This document shows positions 23,651 to 40,201 of a DNA stretch of 40,201 nucleotides, in pieces; the stretch's first letter is position 1, and every line of letters starts with the position of its first letter. The DNA lies in contig CBFGVC010000002.1 in assembly GCA_965652255.1 (NCBI GenBank), forward strand, positions 1 to 40,201, written 5' to 3'. A model generated the notes under the pieces. It was not told where the DNA came from and ran no database searches. It worked only from the letters and a program-made list of their open reading frames with translations. A program made the position numbers and the translations under genes. Origin of the DNA: an uncultured Fibrobacteria bacterium. GTDB lineage: Bacteria > Fibrobacterota > Fibrobacteria > UBA11236.

Positions 23651-23798
23651 CGGCGGTTATTGGCGTTTTTTCGGGGCGGCAACGCCCCCGGCGTCCGCTT
23701 CGGTTTCCCTTTCCCCCCTCTCCTCTATCATTACCGGTCGGTGAGCCGGAGTTCTTTGGGCAACCCCGTTCCTCGGTAGGCCAGTCAACCGGGGCGGT

Positions 23799-23817
23799 GT
23801 CCAAAGACTTTTTGGAC
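23799..23817. promoter_or_regulatory. Perfect palindrome GTCCAAA-N5-TTTGGAC upstream of P1
   Basis: gtccaaa (23799-23805), gactt, tttggac (23811-23817). It is centred about 58 bp upstream of the TATAAT at 23866. Confidence 0.4.
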
Positions 23818-23865
23818 AAAATGACCAGATTGCGGGAATAATGGATTTGAATTATTCGTGTTGGC

Positions 23866-23871
23866 TATAAT
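23866..23871 (+). promoter_or_regulatory. Candidate -10 box (TATAAT) for P1
   Basis: A perfect TATAAT hexamer sits in an AT-rich patch 99 nt upstream of the P1 ATG. The -35 is weak (TGGATT with an 18-nt spacer). Confidence 0.35.
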
Positions 23872-23969
23872 TGCCTGATATCCTGCCCAGAAGCGCTCAC
23901 GGAGCTTCCTGAAGCCTCCGTTCCTTCGGGGTGAAAGCTGCAAAGATTACCGGAGTGCGTAGCGAGAAA

Positions 23970-25079
23970 ATGAATCAGGTCGCGCGAAAACTCTCGAGCA
24001 AAGCAAGGTGCGCGGCATTCGCGGCCGTTGCATCGTTCTTCGCGCTCTCGGGTTGCCTTGGCGGTGGCGGAAGCCTGACCAACTTGCCCGCCAACGAGGC
24101 GACCTTGCTGAACCTCCACATCCGGTTGGGGAAGGTGGACGCATCGGCACCCGCCAACTCGGGAGTCCTGGGCAAAGCGGCGAACACGTTGACCAATGAT
24201 GAGCAGATCATTCTTAAGAACATGACCCTTCGCTTCACCTCGAACCTCAAGGATACGGTTTGGGACGTGGTGGACATGATTTCGGATACATCGCTGGGCG
24301 TCGGCGGCTTTCCCACCGGTGAAATTTCTGGCGACCGTTCCGTATGGGTGGACGTCAGCCTTCCCCCGCTGCGCTGGTGGGCCATCGAAATCAAGACCTA
24401 TGATATGCGTGACAGCGTCATTCATCAGGGAACGGTGACGGGCGTGTCCAGCAAGGGCGGGCAGACCGTGAATATCACCGTGCCCCTGCTGAACTCCCGC
24501 TTTTCCCTTTACGAGGCCCGTTATGTGCTGCCCGGCGAGATCTACGCGGCCGGGGTTCCCGAGGAGCAGCGCGTTTACCAGAAGGTCTTCTTCAGCCGGC
24601 TCGTGCTCGCGGTCGATGGAAAGGTCGTGCGCGACAGTTCCTCCTTCTCTCCAAGCATCACCTCGGCGGGCACGCGGTTCATCACCGCGGGAGACGCGTT
24701 GCGTGGCGCGGCGGGCCGGTTCTTTTTCCGCCCCGGCGCCGCGGGATCCGACACCATCACCCACCTGCAAACCTATCAGTATGTCGAGACGGGACTGCGG
24801 AGCTTCGATATCAGCGCCTATGGCTACCTCGAGGGCGATACCCTTGGCATGGAGCCCCGACTGTTGTTCCAAGGCAGCGCCACGCTGAACATCGCCGCGG
24901 GGGAGAACATCCAAAGCACGCCCGTGGTCCTTGCCTGGAAGGGGCCCGGGAGCTCGCCGAACGACAGCACGGTGACCCCCGGACATCCCGACTGGACCGG
25001 CGTGGGCATGAACGTGTTGATCGGCAAGACGGGTAAGGTAACCCAAACGATCGACATACCCGGGGGGCTGAACCTCTAG
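23970..25079 (+). CDS. Paralogous lipoprotein P1 (divergent family member, no propeller)
   Basis: The ATG at 23970 gives MNQVARKLSSKARCAAFAAVASFFALSGC with a lipobox. It shares the family blocks LRWWAIEIKTYDMRDSVIHQG, SRFSLYEARY and the C-terminal IGKTGKVTQTI. Confidence 0.8.
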   Translation: MNQVARKLSSKARCAAFAAVASFFALSGCLGGGGSLTNLPANEATLLNLHIRLGKVDASAPANSGVLGKAANTLTNDEQIILKNMTLRFTSNLKDTVWDVVDMISDTSLGVGGFPTGEISGDRSVWVDVSLPPLRWWAIEIKTYDMRDSVIHQGTVTGVSSKGGQTVNITVPLLNSRFSLYEARYVLPGEIYAAGVPEEQRVYQKVFFSRLVLAVDGKVVRDSSSFSPSITSAGTRFITAGDALRGAAGRFFFRPGAAGSDTITHLQTYQYVETGLRSFDISAYGYLEGDTLGMEPRLLFQGSATLNIAAGENIQSTPVVLAWKGPGSSPNDSTVTPGHPDWTGVGMNVLIGKTGKVTQTIDIPGGLNL

Positions 25080-25090
25080 CCGTGGCGGTA

Positions 25091-25106
25091 CGGCACGGTT
25101 TTCGCT
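25091..25106 (+). promoter_or_regulatory. sigma54 (-24/-12) promoter candidate for P2
   Basis: CGGCACGGTTTTCGCT has GG and GC at the exact canonical spacing (TGGCACG-N4-TTGCW). It lies 12 nt after the P1 stop and 43 nt before the P2 ATG. Confidence 0.6.
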
Positions 25107-25148
25107 CCTTTTTCGCTTCGTTGGGATCTGAGTCATCGAAGGGCTTTC

Positions 25149-26069
25149 ATGAGCATCAATTTTTTCAAAATTTCCGCACTTGCCTGCTTGGCCGCCTTCG
25201 TGGCCTTGGCTACGGGTTGCCTGAATGACAGCGGGGCCAGCCGGAATGACGAGGCCCGCCTGGTCGTCATGGCCGGCATGAAGGACGTCAACAAGGTCCG
25301 TCCTTTGGGGAAGACCTCCGTCATTTCGCTCCAGAAGCTGGTCATCACGCTGACTTCCAGCGTTCCAACGGATTCGGTTCGTCGCGACACGATCCTCGCC
25401 GACACCAACGCATCCTTCGTCTCCAACGCCACCATCGACCAGCAATTCACGCGTAACTATTCGATCAAGCCGCTGCGCAGCTGGACGATCGTCGTCAAGA
25501 CGCTCGACGCCAACGATTCCGTGATCCACTACGATTCCTCCGTGGCGGCGAACATGCTTGCGGGCGAGACGCGTCCGGTGACTGTCAACCTGGCCTCCCG
25601 CTTCGTGATGTACGAGGCCAAGTTCACCCTGCCTGACAGCCTGAACTTCCAGTTGTCCGGCTTCAAGGAGCAGCTCAAGGTGAACCGCGTGGTGCTCCGT
25701 GTGGACGGAACCATCGTGGCGGACTCCACGCGCAATCCGCGCTTCGAGCCCGGTTCCCCTTCGCCCACCATCCACACCGTGCGATTCGATTACATCCGCG
25801 TGAACCAAACCCCGGATGTCAAGGTCGAGTTCTACGGCAAGATCGGTAGCTACCCCGTCGATACGTTGCTCTTCGCCGTTGAATTCGAGGATGTGGATCC
25901 GGGCGATCCGAATCCCGCGCCCAAGGCACCCGATTATGTCGGCCCCAACGCGGAGGAAATCGCCGGCACCGCCATCGCGGGAATGGTGATCAACATCGGC
26001 AAGGTCGGCACCGTCGTGTTCAACACGAATATCAACGGAAACGTGTTCGGAAAGCCCTCTGTCGACTAG
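25149..26069 (+). CDS. Paralogous lipoprotein P2 (no propeller)
   Basis: MSINFFKISALACLAAFVALATGC has a lipobox. Family blocks are KPLRSWTIVVKTLDANDSVIHYDS, SRFVMYEAKFTLPDS and NIGKVGTVVF. Confidence 0.82.
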   Translation: MSINFFKISALACLAAFVALATGCLNDSGASRNDEARLVVMAGMKDVNKVRPLGKTSVISLQKLVITLTSSVPTDSVRRDTILADTNASFVSNATIDQQFTRNYSIKPLRSWTIVVKTLDANDSVIHYDSSVAANMLAGETRPVTVNLASRFVMYEAKFTLPDSLNFQLSGFKEQLKVNRVVLRVDGTIVADSTRNPRFEPGSPSPTIHTVRFDYIRVNQTPDVKVEFYGKIGSYPVDTLLFAVEFEDVDPGDPNPAPKAPDYVGPNAEEIAGTAIAGMVINIGKVGTVVFNTNINGNVFGKPSVD

Positions 26070-26086
26070 AGGGATCGCGACGAAAT

Positions 26087-26144
26087 CCTCCCGCAATACC
26101 GGGAGGGAAGACACAAGGGGGGCTTAAGGCCCCTCCTTTGTTTT
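26087..26144 (+). terminator. Tandem hairpins plus T-run after P2
   Basis: The first hairpin is cctcccg, caatac, cgggagg (26087-26106). A GC-rich stem follows at 26115-26138, then tttgtttt. Confidence 0.65.
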
Positions 26145-26207
26145 GGGGATGGTTTGGCCGGAGTGTTCGCATTCGGAGTCATTTTGACCATGAAACACTT
26201 GGGGGCG

Positions 26208-26220
26208 TGACACACTGTCA
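26208..26220. promoter_or_regulatory. Palindrome TGACA-cac-TGTCA (candidate enhancer/UAS for the P3 sigma54 promoter)
   Basis: The 5-bp arms are perfect. The centre lies 113 nt upstream of the -24 GG at 26327. An A7 tract and the palindrome aaaacgatcgtttt (26237-26250) lie between it and the promoter. Confidence 0.5.
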
Positions 26221-26325
26221 AAAAAATATGCTGGCGAAAACGATCGTTTTTAAGCCTTGCCGGGAAAACGACCTTTTCTGCAGAAGAATGTGGTTCTACG
26301 ATTCCGATTGAAATTCAAGGGGTGA

Positions 26326-26341
26326 TGGCACGATTCTCGCT
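26326..26341 (+). promoter_or_regulatory. sigma54 (-24/-12) promoter candidate for P3
   Basis: TGGCACGATTCTCGCT matches TGGCACG-N4-TTGCW at 11 of 12 specified positions with correct spacing. It lies 38 nt upstream of the ATG at 26379. Confidence 0.7.
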
Positions 26342-26378
26342 CCTTTCAGGGGTCAGGTAATAACGGAAAGAAGCAAAC

Positions 26379-27335
26379 ATGAAAATCAAGAGCCTTTTCC
26401 TCGCGACTTCGATGATCGGCGCCACGATCCTGGGCGGCTGCTTCATGACCGACGGGGGGAAACCCTCCGGTGACAACCAGCGCCCGGCGAATCTCGTCAT
26501 CAGCATGGGCGTCAAGGACGTGAACAATCTGTCCAAGCCCGGACTTTCCAAGTCCGCCGTCGCCAATGACGGCATCGTGCTGAGCAAGTTGGTCGTCACG
26601 CTCACCTCCAGCGTGGTCACCGATGCCGTCATTCGAGACACGGTGCTGGCGGACACCGGCGACTTCGTTTCCACTTCCACCGACGCTCAGCAGGTCCTCC
26701 GCAACTACGCAGTGAAGCCCTTGCGCAACTGGACCATCCAGGTCAAGACCCTCGACGTGAACGACTCCGTCATTCACATCTCCAGCTCGGTCCAAAACAA
26801 CCTCACCGTCGGCGAAGTTCGCCCGGTGACCTTGAACCTTGCCTCGAAGTTCGTGGTGTACGTCGCCAAGTTCGTGCTTCCGGACAGCATCGGATCGCAG
26901 TCGAGCGACCAAAAGCAGAAGCTTTACGTCCACCGCTTCATGATGGTGGTTGACGGCGACACCGTGCGCGACACCTCCACCACCCCCCCGGATTACTTCT
27001 CGGCGGCACCCGACACCCACAAGGTGTTCTGGAACTACGTGAAGGCCGACACGGTCCACACCCTGCAGTTGTACGTTTATGCCGACAGCCTGGGCGATTG
27101 GGATCCGAACCTGCCCATCTTCGGCGACACCATCCAGATCACCTCCACCGACACGACCTATACGCCGGAGCTGCCGTGGATGGGCCCGGGTTCCGAGCAC
27201 GACCCCGCTTGCCAGGCCAACCCGTCCAACTGTGGCGGCGCGACGACTGGGCTGACCATCAATATCGGCGCCGTGGGATCGGTGGTGATCGTTCCCGGCG
27301 TGCCCGAGAACCCGCTGCCGAAGCGCAAGTACTGA
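26379..27335 (+). CDS. Paralogous lipoprotein P3 (no propeller)
   Basis: MKIKSLFLATSMIGATILGGC has a lipobox. Family blocks are KPLRNWTIQVKTLDVNDSVIHISS, SKFVVYVAKFVLPDS and NIGAVGSVVI. Confidence 0.82.
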   Translation: MKIKSLFLATSMIGATILGGCFMTDGGKPSGDNQRPANLVISMGVKDVNNLSKPGLSKSAVANDGIVLSKLVVTLTSSVVTDAVIRDTVLADTGDFVSTSTDAQQVLRNYAVKPLRNWTIQVKTLDVNDSVIHISSSVQNNLTVGEVRPVTLNLASKFVVYVAKFVLPDSIGSQSSDQKQKLYVHRFMMVVDGDTVRDTSTTPPDYFSAAPDTHKVFWNYVKADTVHTLQLYVYADSLGDWDPNLPIFGDTIQITSTDTTYTPELPWMGPGSEHDPACQANPSNCGGATTGLTINIGAVGSVVIVPGVPENPLPKRKY

Positions 27336-27360
27336 TCGCTGCGATCCAGGCCCGATAACG

Positions 27361-27389
27361 AAAAAAGGGAGGCATAGCCTCCCTTTTTT
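27361..27389 (+). terminator. Rho-independent terminator after P3
   Basis: aaaaaa, gggaggc, ata, gcctccc, tttttt: a perfect stem with a T6 run. Confidence 0.85.
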
Positions 27390-27454
27390 CGTTTGGCTCC
27401 ACTCAGGGTTGTCTTGAGAGTTTGCCTTCCTGGCAAATCAGCGGCCTCGAACCG

Positions 27455-27467
27455 TGACACATTGGCA
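27455..27467. promoter_or_regulatory. Half-degenerate copy of the TGACA-N3-TGTCA motif upstream of P4
   Basis: TGACA-cat-TGGCA, embedded in cgtgacacattg (compare cgtgacacactg at 26206). The centre lies 131 nt upstream of the -24 GG at 27592. Confidence 0.35.
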
Positions 27468-27590
27468 ACAAGGAGAGGGGGCCACGGCATCGATTTTCGG
27501 CCCTTTTCGGCATTCGGTATAAAAGCCCCCTAAACGCCCTAAAAATGGCCGTTATTCAAAGAAAAATGAGCTTTTCAGGGGTTAAATCCT

Positions 27591-27606
27591 TGGCACGACT
27601 CTCGCT
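27591..27606 (+). promoter_or_regulatory. sigma54 (-24/-12) promoter candidate for P4
   Basis: TGGCACGACTCTCGCT differs from the P3 promoter at 1 of 16 positions. It lies 55 nt upstream of the ATG at 27661, which has an AAGGAG RBS at 27649-54. Confidence 0.7.
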
Positions 27607-27660
27607 TTAGCTAGGTTTCAAAGCCGTTAATCGGCGGATTTTATCAGCAAGGAGCCATTG

Positions 27661-28572
27661 ATGCGCAACTTCACCAAACACCTTTCGCTTGCGGCGGTTT
27701 CTGTCGCCGTTTTGGTCTTGAGCGCTTGCTTCGGCACGGCGTCGAACCCCGTCTCCACCTCCGAAGGCGAGGCCACGGTCGTGATCCAGACCAAGACGAA
27801 CAACGTCAACCGCCTGAGCAAGCCCGGCCTCGGGAAGTCGGCGGCCATCACCCTCGATAGCCTCATCGTGACGGCGATCTCCAACGCCTCCACCCCCGAC
27901 ACGGTCATCGTGAAGCTCGGCGTGGGCGATAGCGGCTTTTCCTCGGTCGCCACCTCGGACCAGAACATCGGCATCGTGCTCAACCTGAAGGCGCTGCGCA
28001 ACTGGACGATCTCGGCCAAGACGATCGACGTGAACGACTCGATCATCCAGGAAGGCTCCGTCGTCACGGGCAACCTCTTTGCCGGCCAAACCAAGATCGT
28101 GACGCTCAACGCCACCCCCAATTACACGATCTACACGGCGACCTTCAACTTCCCCGACAGCATCCAGTCGCCTACCGGAAACTTCAAGCAGAAGATCACC
28201 TTCAACAAGATCGAGCTTTTCTTCGACGGCGTGATGGCGGATGACTCGGTGGGAACCTTGGCTCCTTCCGTCAACCAGGTCCTCTCGTATGACTACGTGC
28301 CCACGGGAGTGCTGGCGCCTGATTCCGTGACCCTGAAGGTCTTCGGCAACATCGAGAACGCCGACACGCCCTGGAATGCGGGCAGCAACCTGCTGTACGA
28401 CACCACCGTCGCGATTTCCACGCTGAGCGCGGTTTACCCCGCGACGAATTCCGTCCCGCTCCTCTGGCGGGGTCCCGTGGATGGCGTCGTCGACCTGACG
28501 GTCGAGATCGAGAAGGTGGGCCAGGTCGCCATTGACGGCGAGACGAATCCCATCGTCCTGTCCAAGAAGTAA
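27661..28572 (+). CDS. Paralogous lipoprotein P4 (no propeller)
   Basis: The track start 27658 is a TTG; the ATG at 27661 has an AAGGAG RBS 6 nt upstream. MRNFTKHLSLAAVSVAVLVLSAC has a lipobox. Family blocks are KALRNWTISAKTIDVNDSIIQEGS, YTIYTATFNFPDSI and EIEKVGQVAI. Confidence 0.82.
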   Translation: MRNFTKHLSLAAVSVAVLVLSACFGTASNPVSTSEGEATVVIQTKTNNVNRLSKPGLGKSAAITLDSLIVTAISNASTPDTVIVKLGVGDSGFSSVATSDQNIGIVLNLKALRNWTISAKTIDVNDSIIQEGSVVTGNLFAGQTKIVTLNATPNYTIYTATFNFPDSIQSPTGNFKQKITFNKIELFFDGVMADDSVGTLAPSVNQVLSYDYVPTGVLAPDSVTLKVFGNIENADTPWNAGSNLLYDTTVAISTLSAVYPATNSVPLLWRGPVDGVVDLTVEIEKVGQVAIDGETNPIVLSKK

Positions 28573-28584
28573 TCGCCACGACAG

Positions 28585-28613
28585 CGGACGAACGTGAAAT
28601 AACCGTTCGTCCG
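28585..28613 (+). terminator. Hairpin after P4
   Basis: A perfect 10-bp stem, cggacgaacg with cgttcgtccg, has a 9-nt loop. A weak T-run (gttttc) lies 8 nt downstream. Confidence 0.5.
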
Positions 28614-28687
28614 TCTCCCGCGTTTTCTTGGGCTCGCGAGGGCCCCCCCTGGGCTCGAATTTCAACCACAGCCTGAGAAAAGAAATC

Positions 28688-30448
28688 ATGAAGTTCTCCG
28701 CGAAAAACACCCTGCACGGCGCGACGGTCCTCATGGCCGCCCTTGCCATGGCGGGGTGTTTCGCGTCGGGGAACCCCACCTCGTCCCGACCGATCCCGCA
28801 AGGCGACGAGGTGGGCCTCAAGATCCGCATGGGCGTCGGCAGCGTGACCGCCTTGGGCAAGTCATCGGTTATCACCCTCGACAAGCTCGTGCTCGTCATC
28901 TCGTCGAGCGCCAACGACACGATCCGCGACACCATCACGTCGTCGACGACGCCGGCTCTCAACCCCGTCTCCACAACGGGGCAGACCGTCTCCAAGAACT
29001 ACACGCTCAAGGCGCTTCGTTCCTGGAAGATCGTCGTGACCTCGCGCGACGTGCTCGACAGCGTCATCCACGTCGACTCGGTGGTGGTGCCCGCCCTGTA
29101 CGCGGGCGACACGGCCCAGGTGAACCTCAATCTTTCGTCGCGGTACAGCATGTACGAGGCGAAATTCCTCTCGTTGCCCGACAGCATCCAGTCGGCCACC
29201 CCCTCGCAGCCGAAGCAGGCGCTTTGCATCAACCGGCTGGTGCTCAAGATCGACGGCGCCTCGGTGCGCGACTCTTCCTCGACCGGGCCGTGCTTCGCGT
29301 CGGCAACCACGCACACGCTGGCATACGATTACGTGAGCCTCGGCGCCAAGACGATCGTCGCCTCCGGATCCTCCCAAACCCTGTACGGCATCCACTTCCC
29401 CACGGCTGACACGGGTTACATCGTGGGCGACGACGTCACGTTGAGGAGCGTGGACGGGGGCGCCACCTGGTCGCCGCAAGCCACGGGCGGGACGGCCAAG
29501 ACCCTGCGCGCCGTTCATTTCCTCAATGGCACGACCGGTGTCATCGCCGGAGGCGGCGACAGCGTCGTCATCCGCCGAACCACCAACGCCGGTTCAGGTT
29601 GGACCCGCCCCGTGGGCTCTTCCAGCGCCAACACCATCCGCGCGCTTCACATCGTCAACGACACCGGCTGGGCGTCGCGCTCGCACCTGACCTCGCCGAC
29701 TGGCAGCTACCAGTACTACATCACGGTCGACGGCGGCGCGAGCTGGACGGCCACTGTCAACCAGAACCAGGCCTATTCGATCCGCGGCGTGAACGGCACG
29801 ACGGCCTGGGCCGTCGGTCCCGCGGGAATGATTCGAAAGAACACCACGGCCGCCGGGCATTTTTCCACGGTGCAAACCAGCGGCACCACCCGCACCTTGC
29901 GCTCGGTGTTTCCCGTGAACGCGAACCTTGTCTACGTGGTGGGCGACACGGGCACCGTGTTGCGCACCACGGACGGCGGCGCCAACTGGGCGGCGAAGAC
30001 GAGCGGCACCACCCTGAACCTGAATTCCGTTTACTTCCTCGATGCGGCCACCGGTTTCGCCGTGGGCGACAATGGCATCGTCCTCAGCACCTCCGACAGC
30101 GGCAACACGTGGACCTCGGAGTCCAGCCCCGCTTCCGTGAACTTGAACGCCATCACGTTCGTGGGCGGCAAGGGGTATGTGGTGGGGGCGAACGGCACCT
30201 TGTTCACGGTGAACGGCCCCCGCCAGGTCGAGATGCTGGCCTACGGCCCGATGAATTCCTGGAACGTTGCGCTGCCGCTGTACAGCGGGTCGAAGTACAT
30301 CAACGCGCTTCCCGGAACGGATGCGACGCTTCCCCTCACGCTTTCGTGGACCGGTCCCACCACCGGCACCGGCAAGATCGACGCCGAGCTCGGGAAAGTG
30401 GGCAAGATCACGATCAACGGCACATTGCCAGGGACCACGATGCCCTGA
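28688..30448 (+). CDS. Paralogous lipoprotein P5 with one inserted 7-bladed Asp-box (Ycf48/BNR-like) beta-propeller
   Basis: The ATG at 28688 gives MKFSAKNTLHGATVLMAALAMAGC with a lipobox. The family N-module is present (KALRSWKIVVTSRDVLDSVIHVDS, SRYSMYEAKFLSLPDSI). Seven ~40-aa blades carry SxDxGxTW-type Asp-boxes (SVDGGATW, TTDGGANW, TSDSGNTW) at about 29381-30220. The family C-module follows (VEMLAYGPM...LGKVGKITING). Confidence 0.85.
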   Translation: MKFSAKNTLHGATVLMAALAMAGCFASGNPTSSRPIPQGDEVGLKIRMGVGSVTALGKSSVITLDKLVLVISSSANDTIRDTITSSTTPALNPVSTTGQTVSKNYTLKALRSWKIVVTSRDVLDSVIHVDSVVVPALYAGDTAQVNLNLSSRYSMYEAKFLSLPDSIQSATPSQPKQALCINRLVLKIDGASVRDSSSTGPCFASATTHTLAYDYVSLGAKTIVASGSSQTLYGIHFPTADTGYIVGDDVTLRSVDGGATWSPQATGGTAKTLRAVHFLNGTTGVIAGGGDSVVIRRTTNAGSGWTRPVGSSSANTIRALHIVNDTGWASRSHLTSPTGSYQYYITVDGGASWTATVNQNQAYSIRGVNGTTAWAVGPAGMIRKNTTAAGHFSTVQTSGTTRTLRSVFPVNANLVYVVGDTGTVLRTTDGGANWAAKTSGTTLNLNSVYFLDAATGFAVGDNGIVLSTSDSGNTWTSESSPASVNLNAITFVGGKGYVVGANGTLFTVNGPRQVEMLAYGPMNSWNVALPLYSGSKYINALPGTDATLPLTLSWTGPTTGTGKIDAELGKVGKITINGTLPGTTMP

Positions 30449-30462
30449 TTCGGAGTGATCGC

Positions 30463-32232: not shown

Positions 32233-32398
32233 GCAATCCCCTCGCGATGCTCCTCGCCGCATGTCTCCCGGGTCGAACCGGGCCTTTGCTCCGGGCCGTG
32301 CGGCCGTCGCGGAACCGTTTGCCATAATTTCAAATGTTTGCGTTACGAAACCTTTCTGAGGCCAGTTAAATTTTGTGCTGACAGGGACTTAAACACCC

Positions 32399-35300
32399 AT
32401 GATTGTTGGAAATACCAGCAGATTCCCGAACCGGCCGAGAGCGTCGCATCTCGTCGCGCGCGCGGCCTTCGGTGTGCTGGCCACCGCGCTTTTCGCCTCG
32501 TGTCTGCTTGACCCCGATCGCGGGGGATCCCAATCGGCGCGCAGCGGCGCGCCCGGCTACGTCGGCTTCGAGCTTTCGCTCGAGCGCAACCAAAGGGCCT
32601 TGGGCAAGGCGATGGCGGGGGGCGACACCACGTTCACGCTCGACTCGCTGATCATCGTGCTCACGGCCCCGGGTGCGGACACGATCGTCGAGCGGCTTTC
32701 CATTTCGGGCCGAGCCGACACCGGCGCCATCGACGTGGCTCCCCGGTTTTACACCCTGTTGTCGCTCCGCAACTGGAAGGCCCGCTTCTACACCATCGAC
32801 ACCACCGTGACCCCCTCGCGGCGCGACACGGTGCACATCGACTCCGTGGTTTTCGCCGTGCGGCCGGCCGATACGACGATGGTGACCAAGACCGTCTCCG
32901 CGGCATTCGCCATTCTCCGTGCACGGTTCTATTCCGACAAGCGCGACTCCCTCGGCGCGGGAATCCGCTTCGTGCGCATCCGCGTGCGCGGGGCGACGCG
33001 CGATTCCATCGCGCTCACCGGCGACGTCCTGAATGCCGTGTGGTTCGCCAACCCCGCCACGGGCTGGGCCGTGATGGATACCGGCCGAATCCTGAAGAGC
33101 ACCGACAGCGGCCGCACATGGTTCCCCCAACCGAGCGGCACGACGGCTCACCTGCGCACCCTGAGCTTCGCGAGCACCTCGATCGGGTGGGTCGCCGGCG
33201 ACGACGGCGTCATCCGCAAGACCACCAACGGCGGCACGAGCTGGAGCGCGCAGGCGAGCGGAACGACCCGGCGCATCCGCCGGATTTTTTTCGTGGACGT
33301 GGACAAGGGATATGTCGTGGGCGACTCGGGGCTGGTGCTCAAGACCGTCAATGGCGGGTCCGATTGGTTCCCGATCCACGGCGGCTGGCTGGGCATGAAC
33401 GTCGGCGCGGGCTCCACCACGCTGAACGACGTCTGGTTCTCCGGGGCCACCGGCTATGTCGTGGGCAACGGCGGCATGATCCGCAGAAGCACCGATCACG
33501 GCGCCACCTGGAACGCCATGACGAGCCCCACGGGCAACAATCTCGTCAACCTGGCGTTCGGGAGCGCCTCGGCAGTTTATGCGGCCGGCGCGGCGGGAAC
33601 GATCTCGAAGTACAACGGAACGTCGTGGAGCAACCTTTCCACGGGCACCACCCAAGCGTTGTCGGGGATTCACTTCGGCGATGCGAACCGAGGCTGGGCG
33701 GTCGGCAACGCGGAAACGGCGATCCGCACGGTCAACGGCTCGGGCTGGTCGCGCGCGGCCGCGGGATGGAACCCCAAGACCAGCGGCACGTCGAACGCCC
33801 TGAACTCCGTGAATTTCGGCGGCGCCGACACCGGTTGGGCCGCCGGGGCCTCAGGCACCCTTCGCAAGACCGTGAACGGGGGACAGAACTGGGGGGCCGT
33901 CGCAAGCGGGACGTCCGGCGACCTGAACGCGGTGTACGCGGCCAACGGCACGAAGGCCTGGGCGGTGGGCGCCGGGGAGACGATCGTGCGCACTGCAAAT
34001 GGAACCGACTGGAGCGAAGCCCTCCCTTGGTTCGCCCTCGCCAGCAACACCACCGATTCCCTGTTGTCGATCCACTTCGGATCCGCCACGAACGGCATCG
34101 CCGTGGGAGCCGGCGGCCGGGTTTCGCGCACCTCCACCAGCGGAAACAACTGGACGGCCTCCACCTCCGGAAGCAACCGGCTCAACGCGGTCTGGATGCG
34201 CGACGGGAACAACGCGGTGGCCGTGGGCGTCGGCTCCTCGAACGCCAACATCCGGTACACAACCAATGGCGGTTCCGGCTGGACGGCGGTTTCCAACAGC
34301 GGAACATCGAACGAATTGCGCGGTGTCTGGTCGGACGCCGGCGGCACGCGCTACTTCGCGGTGGGAGCCGGGGGGGTGATCCGCGGCGCCACCACCGTGA
34401 CCGCCAATCCTTGGACCACCCATACATCGGGTACCACGAACCGGCTCAATGCAGTATTCTCGAACGGATCGCGGGCATGGGCCGTGGGCGACGGGGGTGT
34501 CATCCGCCGCATCACCACCATCTCGAACACGAATTGGAGCACCGTGACGAGCGGTACGACCGCCCAGCTCAACGGGGTGTATTTCACGAGCAACAACGTG
34601 GGCTACGTGGTGGGCAACGGGGGCCTCATCCGCAAGTGCACCAACAGCAACAACAACAACTGGACGACGCAGGCCAGCGGCACCACCGAGGACCTGTTGC
34701 ACGTGTTCTTCCGGGGCACGAGCGATACGGGCTATGTGACGGGAGCGAACGGCACGATTCTCAAAACGGTGAACGGGGGGGCGGCCTGGACACCCTTGGC
34801 CACCGGCTCCAGCCAGGTCCTGAACGCGGTTTTCGTGCGAGGGGTCGCCGCCGACACGGTGTACGCCGCCGGGGCGGGCGGGGCCATCCTGAAATCCACC
34901 TCCGGCGGGCGCTTTTCGCGCCGCGGCACGTTGCAAGGCCTGCGGGCCGCTCATTTCTACAACGCCACGTCGGGCTTCGCGGTGGGCGATTCGGGCACCC
35001 TTGCGCGCACCTTGACGTCGGGAGACAACTGGACCAACCTGAACAGCGGGGTCAGCACGCGCCTCAACGCGGTGTTTTCGAACGGCACGCGGGCTTGGGT
35101 GGTGGGCGACGGCGGAATCATCCGCCGCATCACGTCCATCTCGGCCACGAGTTGGAGTTCGGTGACCAGCGGCACGACGACCCAGCTCAACGGGGTGTAC
35201 TTCACGAGCAACAACGTGGGCTACGTGGTGGGCAACGGGGGCCTCATCCGCAAGTGCACCAACAGCAACAACAACAACTGGGCGACGCAGACCAGCGGCA

Positions 35301-36736
35301 CGACGGAGGACCTCTTCGCGGTCTGGTTCAAGGGCAACGGGTCCAGCGACACGGGCTATGTTTCCGGCGCGAACGGGATCCTGCTGAAAACCACCAACGG
35401 CGGCACCAACTGGGTCGCCATGTCGACCGGCACCTCGCAGGGACTGCGCGGCGTGTTCGTGCATCCCGCGGGCGCCGACACGGCGGTCGCGGTGGGTGGT
35501 AACGGCACCATCCTCAAGGTCGGGAAGATCTCGGGCAAGGGCGCTGCGCAGGCGCTTCGCGGGGTGCATTTCCCTACGCTGGCCATCGGGTATCTCGCCG
35601 GTGATTCGGGTGTCATCGCCCGCAGCATCGACAGCGGCAAGACCTGGGTGGCCCGGACAAGCGGCGTGAACACTCCCCTGCGTTCGGTTTATTTCGCCTC
35701 CGCGTCCACCGGATGGGCCGTGGGCGACGGGGGTGTGATCCGCAAGACAACCGACAGCGGCGCGACCTGGAATCCCCAAACAAGCGGCACGGGATCGAAT
35801 CTCACGCGGGTCCGCTTCTCCGACGCGAACAACGGCTGGATCTCGGGCGAAAACGGCGTGATCCTTCGCACCACCAATGCAGGCACGAACTGGACCGCGC
35901 AAACGAGCGGCGTGTCCACCAGCCTGGCGAGCGTGTTCGCGGCGAGTTCCGACACGGGTTATGCCGTCGGAGCCGGCGGCGTCATGCGCAGGACGATCTC
36001 CCAAGGCGTCGCGCACATCCCGCAAACCCACCACATCAACGGGTTCTACGCCCGCAACGACTCGCTGTACCTGGTCGGAGACGGGGCCACCGCGTATCGC
36101 AGCCGCAACGGCGGATCCTCGTGGACCCAGCTCACCGGCGCCACGCAAAATCTCAACGCCGTTTTCTCCACGGGAAACAACGCTTACATCGTGGGCAACG
36201 GGGGGCAGATCGTCACCATCAACCACTCGACCTCGAGCACGTCGCTGATAACCCGAACCAGCAACACCATCCGCAACCTGCACGGCGTGTGGGGCGCGCC
36301 CACCGTCGGCTCCACGCGCATCCACGCCGTGGGCGACTCCGGCACGATCCAGATGCTCCTGGGCGGCGTGGACAGCGCATGGCAAACCTTGGGCGGCAGC
36401 CTCAGCGAATCCTTGCGAAACGTCCAGTGTTCAGGGGTCGGGCTCGGGGAGAAATTCTGCTGGACGGTCGGTGACAACGAGATGGTGCTCCGCACCGAGG
36501 ACGTGGACTGGTCCTTGCTGACCCGCGGGGCGAAGGTGTTCGACAGGCTGCTGACCTTCAAGTACATGAAAGTCGGCACGGTCGATACGGTGCTGATCCA
36601 GGCCATCGATCGCGAGTCGCCCTTGCGCGGGTACGAGAAGCGAGTCATCGTGAACATCGGCGCGGGCCAGGATACGACGATCACGACGGGCCTGACCCGT
36701 TGCGGTTACGGCGGCCCGGCCTGCACCTCGCCCTGA
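32399..36736 (+). CDS. Paralogous lipoprotein P7 with a 28-blade Asp-box propeller array (about four 7-bladed propellers)
   Basis: The ATG at 32399 gives a signal peptide ending ATALFASC with a lipobox. The family N-module is a divergent subtype (SLRNWKARFYTID, RRDTVHIDSVVF, AAFAILRARF). I counted 28 units of ~40-45 aa of the form L-x-x-V-x-F...G-W/Y-A-V-G-D-x-G-x-I-x-K-T-x-D/N-G-G-x-x-W, at about 33029-36513. Confidence 0.85.
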   Translation: MIVGNTSRFPNRPRASHLVARAAFGVLATALFASCLLDPDRGGSQSARSGAPGYVGFELSLERNQRALGKAMAGGDTTFTLDSLIIVLTAPGADTIVERLSISGRADTGAIDVAPRFYTLLSLRNWKARFYTIDTTVTPSRRDTVHIDSVVFAVRPADTTMVTKTVSAAFAILRARFYSDKRDSLGAGIRFVRIRVRGATRDSIALTGDVLNAVWFANPATGWAVMDTGRILKSTDSGRTWFPQPSGTTAHLRTLSFASTSIGWVAGDDGVIRKTTNGGTSWSAQASGTTRRIRRIFFVDVDKGYVVGDSGLVLKTVNGGSDWFPIHGGWLGMNVGAGSTTLNDVWFSGATGYVVGNGGMIRRSTDHGATWNAMTSPTGNNLVNLAFGSASAVYAAGAAGTISKYNGTSWSNLSTGTTQALSGIHFGDANRGWAVGNAETAIRTVNGSGWSRAAAGWNPKTSGTSNALNSVNFGGADTGWAAGASGTLRKTVNGGQNWGAVASGTSGDLNAVYAANGTKAWAVGAGETIVRTANGTDWSEALPWFALASNTTDSLLSIHFGSATNGIAVGAGGRVSRTSTSGNNWTASTSGSNRLNAVWMRDGNNAVAVGVGSSNANIRYTTNGGSGWTAVSNSGTSNELRGVWSDAGGTRYFAVGAGGVIRGATTVTANPWTTHTSGTTNRLNAVFSNGSRAWAVGDGGVIRRITTISNTNWSTVTSGTTAQLNGVYFTSNNVGYVVGNGGLIRKCTNSNNNNWTTQASGTTEDLLHVFFRGTSDTGYVTGANGTILKTVNGGAAWTPLATGSSQVLNAVFVRGVAADTVYAAGAGGAILKSTSGGRFSRRGTLQGLRAAHFYNATSGFAVGDSGTLARTLTSGDNWTNLNSGVSTRLNAVFSNGTRAWVVGDGGIIRRITSISATSWSSVTSGTTTQLNGVYFTSNNVGYVVGNGGLIRKCTNSNNNNWATQTSGTTEDLFAVWFKGNGSSDTGYVSGANGILLKTTNGGTNWVAMSTGTSQGLRGVFVHPAGADTAVAVGGNGTILKVGKISGKGAAQALRGVHFPTLAIGYLAGDSGVIARSIDSGKTWVARTSGVNTPLRSVYFASASTGWAVGDGGVIRKTTDSGATWNPQTSGTGSNLTRVRFSDANNGWISGENGVILRTTNAGTNWTAQTSGVSTSLASVFAASSDTGYAVGAGGVMRRTISQGVAHIPQTHHINGFYARNDSLYLVGDGATAYRSRNGGSSWTQLTGATQNLNAVFSTGNNAYIVGNGGQIVTINHSTSSTSLITRTSNTIRNLHGVWGAPTVGSTRIHAVGDSGTIQMLLGGVDSAWQTLGGSLSESLRNVQCSGVGLGEKFCWTVGDNEMVLRTEDVDWSLLTRGAKVFDRLLTFKYMKVGTVDTVLIQAIDRESPLRGYEKRVIVNIGAGQDTTITTGLTRCGYGGPACTSP
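34442..35677 (+). repeat. Intragenic tandem duplication, 2 x 618 bp (five blades per unit) inside P7
   Basis: Unit 1 is 34442-35059 and unit 2 is 35060-35677. The core 34563-34663 differs from 35181-35281 at 1 of 101 positions by my manual alignment. The flanks are visibly more diverged. Each unit has an (AAC)4 tract (34649-60 and 35267-78). Confidence 0.85.
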
Positions 36737-36827
36737 TCGGTTTTCGTCGCTGAAATTTTCTCCGAATTTTCGGGTGATTTCAACGTGCCGGCAGGTTTGC
36801 CAAAATTACATTACCGAGGAATCTGTT

Positions 36828-36840
36828 TGACAGGGTGTCA
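36828..36840. promoter_or_regulatory. Palindrome TGACA-ggg-TGTCA (candidate enhancer/UAS for the P8 sigma54 promoter)
   Basis: This is the same TGACA-N3-TGTCA architecture as 26208-26220. The centre lies 89 nt upstream of the -24 GG at 36923. The adjacent palindrome attgat-tgc-atcaat (36840-36854), AT-rich DNA and an A8 tract (36883-36890) follow. Confidence 0.5.
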
Positions 36841-36921
36841 TTGATTGCATCAATTTTTATTCAAAAATTAGAAATTTTCCCCAAAAAAAAGCCTTGCTAG
36901 TCCGAGTCTAACATGACGTAA

Positions 36922-36937
36922 CGGCCCGGTATTTGCG
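36922..36937 (+). promoter_or_regulatory. sigma54 (-24/-12) promoter candidate for P8
   Basis: CGGCCCGGTATTTGCG has GG at 36923-24 and TTGC at 36933-36, with canonical spacing. It lies 68 nt upstream of the TTG start at 37005. Confidence 0.55.
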
Positions 36938-37004
36938 AACCTACGGGTGGGTTGCCTCGCCATCGTTCAAGCGTGGGGAGAGCGATCGAGGCAAAGGGTC
37001 GATT

Positions 37005-40000
37005 TTGAATTTCCGCCAGATCACTTTGGGTATCCTGAAACCGGCGGCAGTGCTTTCCGCGCTGTCGTTGGCCGCGTGCATGCTCGTGGAGCCGGGCAAG
37101 GCTCCCGGCGCCCGGATTTCGGGTGAGACCGGCTATGTGAACCTGAAGCTCGATCTCGAGCGCAACAAGCGTCGGGCGCTTGGAAAGTCCGCCGCGGCCG
37201 ACACCGCGTTCCAGCTTGACTCGCTGATCGTGGTCCTCGCGGCGCCAGGTTTCTCCGAAGAGACGCACCGCTATCCGATTTCCGGGCGCCCCGACACCGG
37301 GGACATCTCCGTGATGCTGCCGACGTATCAATTGGCGGCGCTCCGGAACTGGACGGCTCGCTTCTACTCCATCGATGAGCGAGTGAGCCCGCCTGGGCGC
37401 GACACCGTGCACATCGACTCGGTGGTGTTCGGCATCTTTCCGGGCGACACGACGGCGGTCTCGAAGATCGTTTCGCCCGCCTTCGCGATTTTACGCGCGC
37501 GATTCGTCTCCTCCCTGGCCGATTCGATCCCCAACAACGTCCTGTGGCTGCGTCTCCGCGTCGATGGCGTGGTGCGCGACTCCCAGCCCGTGGGCGGCAG
37601 CAACGCCAGCCTCAACTGGCTGCAGGCCCTTTCGGGATCGCGGATCGTGGCCATGGGCGACTCGGGCAAGATCCTGCGTTCGAGCAACAACGGTTCCTCG
37701 TGGTCGTTGCAAACCCTTTCGGGCTATCCCGACATGGCCGCGGGCTATTTCCCCAGCGAGACGGAGGGCTTCGCGGTAAGTCGCGCCGGCATGCTTTACA
37801 AGAGCGCGGACAGCGGCAAGACCTGGATTTCGCGGAACGCGTTCCCGGATTCGGTGAACACCGTGTTCATGACGGGTCCCACGGAGGGCTTCGCGGCGGG
37901 CCGGGGCGGGGGCATCTACAAGTTCATCGGAGAAGGATGGACGAAGCATACGACCATCAGCAATACCTCCCAGCGCCTCAACGGGCTTCATTTCCCGAGC
38001 TCTTCGATCGGCTACGCCGTGGGCGAGAACGAGACCATCCTCAAGACCATCAACGGAACCACCGACGGCTACAACGTGCTGTGGAGCGCGGTGGCGGGGG
38101 GGTGGTTTCCCCAGAACAGCCAGACGTCGAGCGACATCCGCGGCGTGCACTTCATCAGCAAGGACACGGCCTGGGTCGTGGGAGCGGGCGGGTACGCGCG
38201 CGTCACTTACGACGGCGGCGCCACGTGGCAGGATCGCAACCGTAATTTCAACATCAACTCCATCAGCTTCTGGGGAGCCTCGAGGGGATGGATGGCGGGA
38301 GATGGCGGCGAGATCCGGCAGTACGTCTCCGAGTACAACTGGAAGTCCGACGTGAACTCGGGGACATCCCAGAACCTTTACGAAATCCGCGCGATCGGAA
38401 ACGACACGGTCTTCGTCGTCGGAGCGAACGGCGCGCTGCGCCGCACCGTCAACGGCTCCGCGGCCTCGCACCTGGTCGTGTGGTCGGGCATGAGCCTTCC
38501 GGTTTCGCAGGCTTCGGCCTGGACGGCCAAGACCAGCAACACGACGACCGCGCTGAACGCGGTGCACTTCGCCAACGCAAACAAGGGCTACGCGGTGGGA
38601 GCGTCGCGCAACGTTTCGGTCACGAGCAACGGCGGCGAAAGTTGGTCCTCGGCATCGGTTGGAAACACCGGCGGAACCTATCACGCCGTGTTCGCGGTCA
38701 ACGCGGACGTGGCCTATATCGGGGGCAGCGGCGGAAACAACAACGGCGCGAACGCGAACTTTCGCCGCACCACGAATGGCGGCTCGAGCTGGACGGGCGT
38801 TCCCTCCGGGATTTCCACCGATATCCGCGGCATCGCCGCCGTTTCCACTTCCGTGGGATGGATCGTGGGCCCGTCGAACGTGATCCGCAGCACGGACAAT
38901 CTCAACGCCGGAACCCCGACCTGGACCGATCGCAATGCCGGCACCGGAAATTACAACGCCATCGACATCACCAGCGACAACGTCTGGGTGGTGGGCGAGA
39001 ATGCCCAAGTACGCCGGGCCTGGGGCAAGGGACATAACGCGGCCTTCTCGGTCGTCAACAACTCCGGTCTCGGTTCCACCAACCTGCGCGCAGTGCAGTT
39101 TCTAGCGAGCGACAACGCCGTGGGCTGGGTCGTTGGCGACGGAGGCCTCATCGCCAAGACCACCAGCGGCACCTGGTCGGTGGACTGGGTTGTCCAGGGC
39201 TCCCCGGTCACGGAGGATCTCGTCGACGTGATGTTCCTCAACGCCGATACCGGTTATGTCACGGGCGCCAACGGAACGGTGCTCAAGACCGTCAACGGCG
39301 GCGCGGTCTGGGCGGTGAGCTCCACCGGCAGCAGCCAGCCCCTGAACGGCGTGCATGCCTGGAACGGAAGCACGGTTGTGGCGGTGGGCGGCGCGGGAAC
39401 CGTGCTCAAGACAACCATCGGCGGCCAGCAGCCCGGCCTGAACCGGAACTTCCGCAGCGTGCACCCGGTCACCTCCTCTCTGGTGTACCTCGCAGGCGAC
39501 AGCGGGACGATCGGCAAGACCACCAACGGCGGCGCGGTTTGGCAGCTCCAGACCTCGGGCACGAGCGCGCACCTTTACGGCATCCACTTCGCCAACGCGA
39601 ACGTCGGGTGGGCGGTGGGCGCGGGCGGCGTCATTCGCAAGACCACCGACGGCGGCGCCAACTGGAACCCGCAAACGAGCAACACCACCCAAAACCTTCG
39701 CTCCGTGCGCGCCGTCTCGGCTGACACGGCCTATGCGACGGGCACCGGCGGCCTCATGCTCAAGACCGTGGACGGCGGCGCGACGTGGTACACCCAGGAA
39801 ACCCCGGCGGGAACGCCTCAACTCAACCGCGTCCACTTCCTGAACGCTTCCGTCGGCTTCGCCGTGGGCGCGAACGGCACCATCCTCAAGGCGGTGAACC
39901 AAGGCGACAACTGGACCGGAGGCGGCATCAAGCGCTCGCTCAAGGGCGTTTACTTCGTCAGCACCACCACGGGGTGGATCGTGGGCGCCGACGGCATCAT

Positions 40001-40201
40001 CCTCAAGACCACCGACGGCGGAGCCACGTGGGTGGAACAGCGCCGGCAGGTCGGACAGACGCTATACGGGGTTTATTTCCGCAGTTCCACCCTGGGTTGG
40101 GTGACGGGCGATAACGGCCTCATCCTCAAGACCACCGACGGCGGTACCAACTGGACGACGCAAACAAGCAACACCTCCATCGCCTTGCGCTGGGTGCAAT
40201 T
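37005..40201 (+). CDS. Paralogous lipoprotein P8 (5' partial view; continues past the window end) with at least 20 Asp-box propeller blades
   Basis: It is absent from the ORF track because there is no stop in the window; the frame is open from 36912. The TTG at 37005 gives (M)NFRQITLGILKPAAVLSALSLAAC with a lipobox; TTG 37026 is an alternative. The first ATG falls after the lipobox Cys. The N-module is closest to P7 (ALRNWTARFYSID, GRDTVHIDSVVF, PAFAILRARF). Blades run through to 40201. Confidence 0.8.
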   Translation, partial: MNFRQITLGILKPAAVLSALSLAACMLVEPGKAPGARISGETGYVNLKLDLERNKRRALGKSAAADTAFQLDSLIVVLAAPGFSEETHRYPISGRPDTGDISVMLPTYQLAALRNWTARFYSIDERVSPPGRDTVHIDSVVFGIFPGDTTAVSKIVSPAFAILRARFVSSLADSIPNNVLWLRLRVDGVVRDSQPVGGSNASLNWLQALSGSRIVAMGDSGKILRSSNNGSSWSLQTLSGYPDMAAGYFPSETEGFAVSRAGMLYKSADSGKTWISRNAFPDSVNTVFMTGPTEGFAAGRGGGIYKFIGEGWTKHTTISNTSQRLNGLHFPSSSIGYAVGENETILKTINGTTDGYNVLWSAVAGGWFPQNSQTSSDIRGVHFISKDTAWVVGAGGYARVTYDGGATWQDRNRNFNINSISFWGASRGWMAGDGGEIRQYVSEYNWKSDVNSGTSQNLYEIRAIGNDTVFVVGANGALRRTVNGSAASHLVVWSGMSLPVSQASAWTAKTSNTTTALNAVHFANANKGYAVGASRNVSVTSNGGESWSSASVGNTGGTYHAVFAVNADVAYIGGSGGNNNGANANFRRTTNGGSSWTGVPSGISTDIRGIAAVSTSVGWIVGPSNVIRSTDNLNAGTPTWTDRNAGTGNYNAIDITSDNVWVVGENAQVRRAWGKGHNAAFSVVNNSGLGSTNLRAVQFLASDNAVGWVVGDGGLIAKTTSGTWSVDWVVQGSPVTEDLVDVMFLNADTGYVTGANGTVLKTVNGGAVWAVSSTGSSQPLNGVHAWNGSTVVAVGGAGTVLKTTIGGQQPGLNRNFRSVHPVTSSLVYLAGDSGTIGKTTNGGAVWQLQTSGTSAHLYGIHFANANVGWAVGAGGVIRKTTDGGANWNPQTSNTTQNLRSVRAVSADTAYATGTGGLMLKTVDGGATWYTQETPAGTPQLNRVHFLNASVGFAVGANGTILKAVNQGDNWTGGGIKRSLKGVYFVSTTTGWIVGADGIILKTTDGGATWVEQRRQVGQTLYGVYFRSSTLGWVTGDNGLILKTTDGGTNWTTQTSNTSIALRWVQ

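Follow-up and report, generated by a model that had tools for sequence, protein, structure and literature searches.

Type V pili are represented by FimA–E and Mfa1–5 of Porphyromonas gingivalis and by the "putative cell adhesion proteins" of Bacteroides and Parabacteroides. They have been described as unique to the class Bacteroidia, and their subunits are made as lipoprotein precursors in which the N- and C-terminal domains are both beta-sandwiches (PMC13655056). The N-terminal anchor strand is followed by a loop with a protease site; donor strands are C-terminal in stalk and anchor pilins and absent in tip pilins, and the anchor pilin is without a cleavage site (PMC13655056). FimA (lipobox MTAC, residues 16–19) is cut at Arg46 and Mfa1 (lipobox FASC, residues 17–20) at Arg49, placing these Arg-gingipain (Rgp) sites 27 and 29 residues past the lipobox Cys, and the strands of Mfa1 are designated beta1 to beta14 plus betaC (PMC13655056). 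In Bacteroides, genes for tip adhesins lie downstream of the anchor and stalk genes. No paper was found in the literature linking type V pili to Fibrobacteres or to other non-Bacteroidia phyla of the Fibrobacteres–Chlorobi–Bacteroidetes (FCB) group. The locus compared with them here is an array of eight lipoprotein genes, P1–P8, in a 40,201-nt stretch of DNA (the window: positions 1–40,201 of contig CBFGVC010000002.1, GenBank assembly GCA_965652255.1) from an uncultured Fibrobacteria bacterium. The array may encode the subunits of a type V-like (FimA/Mfa-like) surface fiber, or of a closely related pilin-based adhesin set, in uncultured high-GC Fibrobacteria, a reading to which a probability of roughly 0.4 is assigned.

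A tandem array of lipoprotein paralogs

In the region analyzed (positions 23651–40201 of the window, which has about 65% G+C), a reading frame with high G+C at third codon positions runs throughout on the + strand and forms eight successive genes (23970–40201):

23970–25079, + strand: P1, 369 aa; the most divergent module-only paralog, with a conserved C-LGGGGSLTNLP after the lipobox, an L-G-K loop and a C-terminal IGKTGKV strand
25149–26069, + strand: P2, 306 aa; module-only lipoprotein with an L-G-K loop and a C-terminal INIGKVGTVVF strand
26379–27335, + strand: P3, 318 aa; module-only lipoprotein, structure modeled
27661–28572, + strand: P4, 303 aa; module-only lipoprotein
28688–30448, + strand: P5, 586 aa; one 7-bladed Ycf48-like propeller inside the second domain (about residues 223–511), C-terminal LGKVGKITI strand kept
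30463–32232, + strand: P6, 589 aa; architecture as in P5, to which it is 47% identical
32399–36736, + strand: P7, 1445 aa; lipobox, first domain, part of the second, 28 blades (four propellers) and the remainder of the second domain, ending TRCGYGGPACTSP
37005 (TTG start) to the window end at 40201, + strand: P8, more than 1065 aa visible, with at least 20 blades; open at its 3′ end

All eight products begin with a short run of charged residues, after which come a hydrophobic segment and a lipobox (L/h-[ASG]-[GAS]-C), which reads, from P1 to P8, LSGC, ATGC, LGGC, LSAC, MAGC, LVGC, FASC, and LAAC. A preliminary description of this DNA, made from the sequence alone, had reported eight consecutive paralogs on one strand, each with a signal peptide and lipobox Cys, and this is borne out by the gene models, all-against-all BLASTP, and inspection of the lipoboxes. 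The closest pairs it named are also the closest by BLASTP: P2/P3 (42% identity, E 2e-63), P5/P6 (47%, E 7e-162), and P7/P8 (35%, E 0). P1 matches P2–P6 at E 1e-10 to 2e-21, and a hidden Markov model (HMM) of the shared module scores P1–P6 at E 1e-58 to 1e-139 and P8 at 2e-8. The paralogy among P1–P8 is far above chance. Full-length P8 orthologs have 1149–1196 aa, so about 100–130 aa of P8 lie beyond the end of the window.

Array loci from related genomes (L001/L002, L003, L004, and L005), whose P3 orthologs are 45–57% identical to P3, were compared with the window. The order in L001, L003, L004, and L005 is P1-, P2-, P3-, and P4-type, extra small paralogs, one or two of P5/P6-type, and P7-type, and a P8-type gene follows the P7-type one wherever the related contig runs on. 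Another genome (L006) has a second, shorter array, made up of three small genes and one P8-type gene and lying in an unrelated context. Array and lipoboxes are thus kept in other genomes, a point on which the preliminary description had made its proposal depend.

The sequence common to these proteins had been divided into separate N- and C-terminal modules, a division that does not hold. A profile of the ~300-aa paralogs (A1) hits both P5 and P6 twice, with positions 7–222 before the propeller and 222–305 after it, the two pieces being separated by about 290 aa of propeller. Because the profile matches in two pieces that flank the propeller, the supposed modules are the halves of a single unit of about 260–300 aa with two beta-sandwiches, and the propeller is inserted in the second. 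P7 and P8 retain the first domain according to the profile alignment, and the last strands of the second are, by eye, also present after the propellers. Proteins of the P1–P6 types close with a conserved C-terminal strand, h-x-I-G-K/A-V-G-x-h. The G-K/A-V-G-x-h-x-I terminus earlier assigned to P1–P7 therefore stands for P1–P6 but not for P7, which stops right after its W/Y-x-G-P motif; all P7 and P8 orthologs recovered likewise end in TRCGYGGPxCxP and are without the terminal strand.

Blades were counted with an HMM built from the proteins themselves, giving none in P1–P4, about seven in each of P5 and P6, 28 in P7, and 20 in the visible part of P8. A search with PF14870 (PSII_BNR; gathering cutoff 27) gave 70.8, 76.7, 194.1, and 167 bits for P5, P6, P7, and P8, and together these results uphold the series of 0, 7, 28, and at least 20 blades first reported. 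Among solved structures, those of Ycf48 (8am5, 2xbg, and 5ojp) are closest to the propellers. Ycf48/HCF136 resembles P5–P8 in that their propellers pass the gathering score and in that Ycf48, too, is a lipoprotein. Since P5–P8 do not reach the NCBIfam equivalog cutoff for Ycf48 (326 bits), their propellers are relatives of Ycf48 and not orthologs. Unlike the Ycf48 case, the host is classed among the Fibrobacteria, no photosynthesis genes are seen in the window, and a single chain has as many as four propellers, set in a pilin-like module. The "YCF48-related" multi-propeller proteins of the FCB group differ as well, as most of those in other FCB-group bacteria carry a C-terminal domain (PF18962) of the T9SS (type IX secretion system) instead of the lipobox module.

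Stepwise addition of propellers by serial duplication, as initially proposed for the rise in blade number along the array, is too simple. Every paralog type has its own ortholog in other genomes, so the duplications are old. The propeller also seemingly enters different loops in the P5/P6 and P7/P8 types (the alignment here is weak), and a propeller-less P5/P6-like paralog of about 295–320 aa lies beside a propeller-bearing one in both L001 (12325–13212) and L004 (12311–13276). The comparison of these neighboring genes shows gain or loss of a whole propeller within one paralog type.

Predicted fold of the shared module

The structure of P3 was predicted with AlphaFold2 (AF2) from a 58-sequence alignment, with a predicted local distance difference test score (pLDDT) of 77 and a predicted template modeling score (pTM) of 0.68. 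The model is all-beta, with two sandwich domains. A low-confidence loop with the invariant K58 (residues 48–61) comes directly after strand 1, and the C-terminal tail is of low confidence, with the conserved strand 301–304 poorly placed. A Walker-A reading of the G-K-S/T motif was considered and rejected, the fold being all-beta. In a Foldseek comparison with the PDB, Bacteroidales type V pilins came out on top (3r4r, 3up6, 3gf8, 4jg5, 3pay, 4gpv, 5nfi (Mfa2), 5cag, 4rdb, and 4h40), with E-values from 8.5e-5 to 2e-3, probabilities of about 1.0, and template modeling (TM) scores of 0.26–0.36. Gram-positive pilins, FN3 tandems, and transglutaminase domains followed lower down, with TM-scores of 0.15–0.26.

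A second model was made for P0341, a module-only protein of 272 aa whose subfamily is distant and low in GC; the alignment behind it was a separate one of 62 sequences (pLDDT 83, pTM 0.72). The model has seven plus seven strands and an extra, poorly placed C-terminal strand, a count that recalls the beta1–beta14 plus betaC of Mfa1 and so lends support to the pilin class. Type V pilins led the Foldseek list again (3up6 with E 1.1e-5; TM-scores of 0.43 for 4gpv, 0.42 for FimA 4q98, and 0.41 for 4jg5), which also includes 3gf8, 3pay, 4h40, and Mfa3 (5nf4); other tandem-domain hits (FN3, C2, transglutaminase) have TM-scores near 0.2. Over the two models, E-values for type V pilins span 1e-5 to 3e-3, and their TM-scores are the highest in each list. 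The predicted fold of the module is thus closest to that of type V pilins, consistently in two independent models, at modest TM-scores.

The module had been called undescribed. It belongs to no sequence family, as detailed below, but the two AF2 models and certain sequence landmarks make its fold placeable, nearest the type V pilins. What had been proposed as an undescribed cell-surface system would be better described as a system of pilin-like lipoproteins that is possibly a type V-like fimbria outside the Bacteroidia, with surface exposure presumed.

Other fibers of Ig-like subunits invite comparison too: chaperone-usher pili, with their strand complementation, and Gram-positive sortase pili, with their conserved linkage Lys. 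Gram-positive pilins were among the weaker Foldseek hits of P3, with TM-scores below those of type V pilins. The array subunits also differ from both kinds in being predicted lipoproteins, and the examined parts of the window contain no gene for an usher, a chaperone, or a sortase.

Comparison with type V pilins

Besides lipoprotein precursors and two predicted tandem beta-sandwich domains, for which type V pilins are the best PDB match of both models, the array shares with type V pili a basic residue that lies in the loop following strand 1 and is spaced similarly from the Cys. An L-x-K sequence follows strand 1 invariantly in P1–P8, in all array members of five genomes, and in the distant subfamily, at 31–40 residues past the lipobox Cys and in a loop of low pLDDT. 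It is a candidate for the protease-site landmark of type V pilins, an Arg or Lys after the anchor strand, with Lys in the array where the FimA and Mfa1 sites have Arg.

The C-terminal strand is a second candidate landmark. Its sequence is conserved, and it is not confidently docked in the model of either P3 or P0341. When strand 1 of the distant subfamily was made into an HMM, the C-terminal strand came first among the non-self hits in 60 of the 62 proteins of that subfamily (median 9.5 bits, against a maximum of 1.3 for shuffled sequences), and the same HMM also matches the C-terminal strands of P2, P3, and P4. The strand is kept in the small subunits, and its loss coincides exactly with the large multi-propeller proteins encoded 3′-most in the array (P7/P8 types), in all genomes examined. 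To judge by their sequences and by analogy with type V pili, where the donor strand is likewise missing from large distal proteins, the P7/P8-type proteins would be tip-pilin-like, being encoded by 3′-end genes and without a donor strand. The operon-like array of paralogs with adhesin-bearing genes 3′-most is a further likeness.

The differences are also considerable. P1–P8 show no detectable sequence similarity to pilin families and come from the class Fibrobacteria, not Bacteroidia; the array is without a site-less, anchor-type subunit; and from one to four whole 7-bladed propellers are inserted inside the second domain instead of being appended. Finally, the array has sigma-54-type promoters, and its cleavage and polymerization are presumed by comparison with type V pili.

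Distribution of the module family

The preliminary description could place the module in no named family, and in this it was correct as far as sequence is concerned. Neither Pfam nor NCBIfam gave a hit to the module in P1–P8, and no Pfam hit was obtained even at E≤10 over 58 family members. A profile search of PDB sequences found no relative, the sole hit being a TNF-receptor-like protein at chance level (E 0.008). P3 had 79 hits in an index of 5.8 billion proteins, none with a Pfam domain or functional name; those with names are all "hypothetical protein," one of them from a metagenome-assembled genome labeled "Fibrobacteria bacterium." When 1.84 billion cluster representatives were searched exhaustively with an HMM, only 338 reached E≤1e-3. 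Cluster look-ups gave no taxonomic label other than "Fibrobacteria bacterium." A scan with closer sequences found the P3-type gene in just two GTDB species genomes; the type is rare among GTDB species representatives.

Members of the distant subfamily, whose genes are on contigs of 40–44% G+C, share the lipobox, an L-A-K loop, and an L-G-A-V-G-T-V strand, followed by a highly variable C-terminal domain. These domains include Laminin_G_3, PF09603, LVIVD, PQQ/BamB-like, Kelch, BNR, YVTN, RCC1, FGE-sulfatase-like, Ig, PA14, F5/8C, and CARDB, and from such fusions the module appears to be a general carrier of binding domains. In the low-GC proteins P0162–P0436, for example, it is joined to dozens of them, among them PF09603 (Fib_succ_major) and FGE-sulfatase/C-type-lectin-like domains. 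The "major paralogous domain" lipoproteins of Fibrobacter (PF09603/TIGR02145) are comparable in that distant family members fuse the same module to PF09603, and these fusions tie the family to the surface-protein repertoires of Fibrobacterota. P1–P8 themselves have no such match, and the module they share is a different, not previously defined domain.

The distant-subfamily genes are solitary or paired and have no PorV-like neighbor (loci L007–L010). At L007 there are two tandem copies with 88% identity in the module and different C-terminal domains, which suggests that the binding domain of genes of this type may be swapped like a cassette. Minus-strand genes of no known function beside the family member at L008 were checked with the module HMM and are not family members.

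Possible assembly and alternative explanations

If the array does encode a fiber, its lipobox sequences suggest that the subunits would pass through Sec and receive their lipid on the lipobox Cys. By analogy with the Fim and Mfa pili of Porphyromonas (PMC13655056), they would then be transferred to the outer face of the outer membrane, where a Lys-specific protease could cleave the loop at L-x-K after strand 1 and so loosen the lipidated "anchor" strand. The conserved C-terminal strand of the next subunit might fill the groove thus vacated, as described for type V pili (PMC13655056). In the same comparison (PMC13655056), P1–P4 would be stalk or adaptor subunits, P5 and P6 single-propeller subunits, and P7 and P8, with three to four propellers and no donor strand, distal tip adhesins. 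Binding of ligands would fall to the Ycf48-like propellers. For P1–P8 all of these steps are presumed, from lipidation and export to the surface through cleavage and strand exchange to the binding itself. One point in favor of a fiber is that P1–P4 carry no binding domain, which is natural for structural subunits and hard to account for in stand-alone adhesins; the kept composition and order of the arrays, with the shorter one in L006, and the separate expression signals of the genes are others. Membership of the type V class itself is proposed from resemblance in fold and architecture, and a search among the array members of five genomes did not find the anchor-pilin feature. A more specific version can be offered tentatively: a true type V-like pilus outside the Bacteroidia, put together by strand exchange that a protease triggers, with pilins dissimilar in sequence to FimA and Mfa, Lys maturation at L-x-K, one to four complete propellers inside the C-terminal pilin domain, and anchoring that dispenses with a classical uncleaved anchor pilin and perhaps goes via the PorV-like barrel encoded upstream of the array, the module being a general carrier of dozens of binding domains in relatives.

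Several observations weigh against a type V-like fiber. As for the transthyretin-like arrangement of the two domains of type V pilins, the models show a two-sandwich layout with seven plus seven strands and have type V pilins as their top match, but the TM-scores are modest (0.30–0.43), and a tandem beta-sandwich is a common shape. Pilin families gave no match at E≤10 among the 58 family members, and no pilin appeared in the PDB profile search. The mimicry between strand 1 and the C-terminal strand, the one indirect support for polymerization, reaches significance in the distant subfamily but, whichever strand is used for the search, not within the subgroup to which the window belongs. No anchor-type subunit without L-x-K was found among the array members of five genomes, and scanning of parts of the window and of related loci turned up no candidate protease gene. 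The conserved strand of distant-subfamily proteins lies internally, with lectin or propeller domains after it, and solitary or paired genes with an internal "donor" strand fit display as monomers better than polymerization.

Monomeric display is the main rival, and is itself considered rather unlikely. The two-sandwich module would then be a lipid-anchored stalk that keeps binding domains (propellers here; lectin, Kelch, RCC1, and others in relatives) at a distance from the outer membrane, on surface-displayed lipoproteins that do not polymerize, and its likeness to pilins would reflect shared ancestry or convergence. The distant subfamily speaks for this, with its highly variable C-terminal binding domains, its genes in singletons or pairs, and its internally placed strand, as does the lack of an anchor-type member in the arrays; related Ycf48-like propellers in other FCB-group bacteria are, moreover, mostly T9SS cargo, displayed or secreted singly. 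What monomers leave unexplained is the presence of four to six conserved module-only paralogs (P1–P4 types) with no binding domain, the invariant L-x-K in a flexible loop, the undocked C-terminal strand that mimics strand 1, and the confinement of strand loss to the giant terminal proteins. Roles within the periplasm or coupled to T9SS are less likely than either a fiber or monomeric display, because P1–P8 have no T9SS C-terminal domain and the L006–L010 loci have no PorV-like neighbor. It is improbable that these are periplasm-facing outer-membrane lipoproteins of envelope biogenesis, comparable to the assembly factors BamB or Ycf48, even though Ycf48 is an assembly lipoprotein with a 7-bladed propeller, some Bacteroides relatives of pilus tip adhesins are periplasmic, and the array in the window, L001, and L003 adjoins yidC/yidD/rnpA/rpmH, a lipid A acyltransferase-like gene, and a barrel gene. 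Eight paralogs with up to 28 blades, and relatives with lectin, PA14, and F5/8C domains, look more like an extracellular binding repertoire; elsewhere, members of the family show no link to envelope genes; and the predicted fold matches adhesive pilins. More improbable again is a T9SS-related sorting system, in which the Reg_prop propeller of the PorV-like barrel receives or holds the lipoproteins and the Lys or C-terminal strand is an element for docking or transpeptidation. In the window, L001, L003, and L004, the propeller-bearing PorV/PorQ-family gene does lie two genes upstream of the array, and the window encodes a relative of T9SS-dependent M6-like proteins whose C-terminus is FlgD_ig-like. 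No PorV-like neighbor is seen, however, at the second array (L006) or beside any distant member, P1–P8 are without a domain of the PF18962/TIGR04183 type, and the adjacency is perhaps mere conservation of gene order among related genomes.

Were the fiber reading correct, a type V-related operon system in Fibrobacteria would move the origin of pili of this class further back, to within the FCB superphylum, and a second, very divergent example would separate essential traits (the lipobox, the cleavable strand-1 loop, and the donor strand) from lineage-specific ones (Arg-gingipain processing and the anchor pilin). Propellers within a pilin domain would likewise be an unusual route to a multivalent fiber. 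The proteins make up a domain family that had no name before, with about 338 cluster representatives, whose very wide range of binding domains marks an adhesin repertoire of Fibrobacterota-like genomes; if they are monomeric instead, the family is still a new scaffold for surface display.

Promoters and terminator

Spacers of about 300 nt between genes of the array hold conserved promoter and terminator elements:

25091–25106, + strand: sigma-54-type promoter of P2, CGGCACG-N4-TCGCT, 43 nt before the start
26326–26341, + strand: sigma-54-type promoter of P3, TGGCACG-N4-TCGCT, 38 nt before the start; conserved before the P3-type gene in each of the five loci aligned
27591–27606, + strand: sigma-54-type promoter of P4, TGGCACG-N4-TCGCT, 55 nt before the start
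26117–26145, + strand: intrinsic (Rho-independent) terminator after P2, a GC-rich hairpin (26117–26135) with a T-tract

The promoter motifs in the window match 10–11 of 12 consensus positions (TGGCAC-N5-TTGC type) and have the GG-N10-GC spacing of sigma-54 promoters, to which type they can be assigned on sequence. A motif scan of both strands of the window, L001, and L003–L008 gave 13 matches, every one on the coding strand and 49–109 nt upstream of a gene of the array; for 12 of the matches that gene is small and module-only, of P2/P3/P4 type. Positions outside the window include 9922 and 11239 in L001; 9939, 11178, and 12408 in L003; 9892 and 11200 in L004; and 94, 2429, and 3815 in L005. 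About 130 nt further upstream of the P3 promoter there is a conserved TTGnCAAA, part of the inverted repeat TGACAcacTGTCA in the window; an activator may bind at this element.

Five loci (the window, L001, L003, L004, and L005) share the terminator after P2, and the alignment shows changes on both sides of its stem. Its presence implies that P1 and P2 would be transcribed apart from P3 onward. Because the small genes have their own putative promoters and a terminator follows P2, the subunits may be made in unequal dosage. In a generic scan for promoters and terminators, the sequence was overall no richer in them than shuffled sequence, and only the terminator after P2 is backed by conservation. 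The spacer before P8 (36737–37004) is strikingly AT-rich against the 65% G+C of the genome, with stretches such as AATTTTTATTCAAAAATTAGAAATTTTCCCCAAAAAAAAGCC, and has a weaker sigma-54-like match (9 of 12 positions), CGGCCCGGTATTTGCGA.

Gene neighborhood

Genes upstream of the array in related loci come in the order trmE-yidC-yidD-rnpA-rpmH on the opposite strand, then an LpxL-like acyltransferase, a small membrane protein, a PorV/PorQ barrel, an HU/IHF-like gene, and the array. The corresponding features of the window include:

14492–18661, − strand: trmE and yidC region; both genes identified, with short open reading frames (ORFs) at the places of yidD, rnpA, and rpmH in L001 and L003
20426–22861, + strand: PorV/PorQ-family outer-membrane barrel gene (NF033709, PF19572, and PF07494), with an inserted Reg_prop propeller
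23234–23650, + strand: HU/IHF-like DNA-binding protein gene, between the PorV-like gene and P1

The trmE-yidC-yidD-rnpA-rpmH cluster is classically found near dnaA and oriC in many bacteria, and, to judge from the same gene arrangement in L001 and L003, the array may lie near the replication origin. A PorV-like barrel upstream of the array had been noted in the preliminary description, and the identification stands (NF033709 PorV_fam, cutoff 90, score 175.8 bits; it stays below the equivalog cutoffs for PorV and PorQ), with the correction that the HU/IHF-like gene intervenes. The Reg_prop beta-propeller, of about 380 aa, sits after the first conserved strand segment of the barrel, and a PorV-like gene with a propeller insert is found at the equivalent place in L001, L003, and L004, an unusual architecture that is conserved. 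Conservation of the array next to a PorV-like gene holds for these same three loci, whose contigs reach far enough upstream, but not for L006–L010, which carry family members without a PorV-like neighbor.

The HU/IHF-like product matches IHF-alpha and HU models at 5.7e-22 to 4e-8, all under the curated cutoffs, and PF00216 genes occupy its position in L001 and L003. It is a plausible partner for the sigma-54-type promoters.

P1–P8 were also considered as T9SS cargo, which was rejected for lack of a C-terminal sorting domain: Pfam and NCBIfam scans found none of the PF18962/TIGR04183 type in any of them. The T9SS-type cargo protein reported elsewhere in the window is the 1303-aa product of 4409–8320. 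It resembles NF052323 ("T9SS-dependent M6-like inactivated metalloprotease"; E 2.9e-61) but is below its cutoff; it is without HExxH and has FG-GAP repeats and a C-terminal domain that is FlgD_ig-like.

A search of the whole window with Rfam (gathering thresholds) and a tRNA scan found nothing. Further along are an aguB-like gene (N-carbamoylputrescine amidase, 9103–10029) and an aguA-like gene (agmatine deiminase, 12105–13256), and between them a gene for an 812-aa homolog of TMEM260-like protein O-mannosyltransferases (9612–12050). The ORF calls at 9103–10029 and 9612–12050 overlap, so the start of the TMEM260-like gene is uncertain. Among the related loci, L004 (CAZKRC010000030.1, 63% G+C) has the array and Fibrobacteria-type synteny, and its public label, "uncultured Bifidobacterium sp.," looks wrong.

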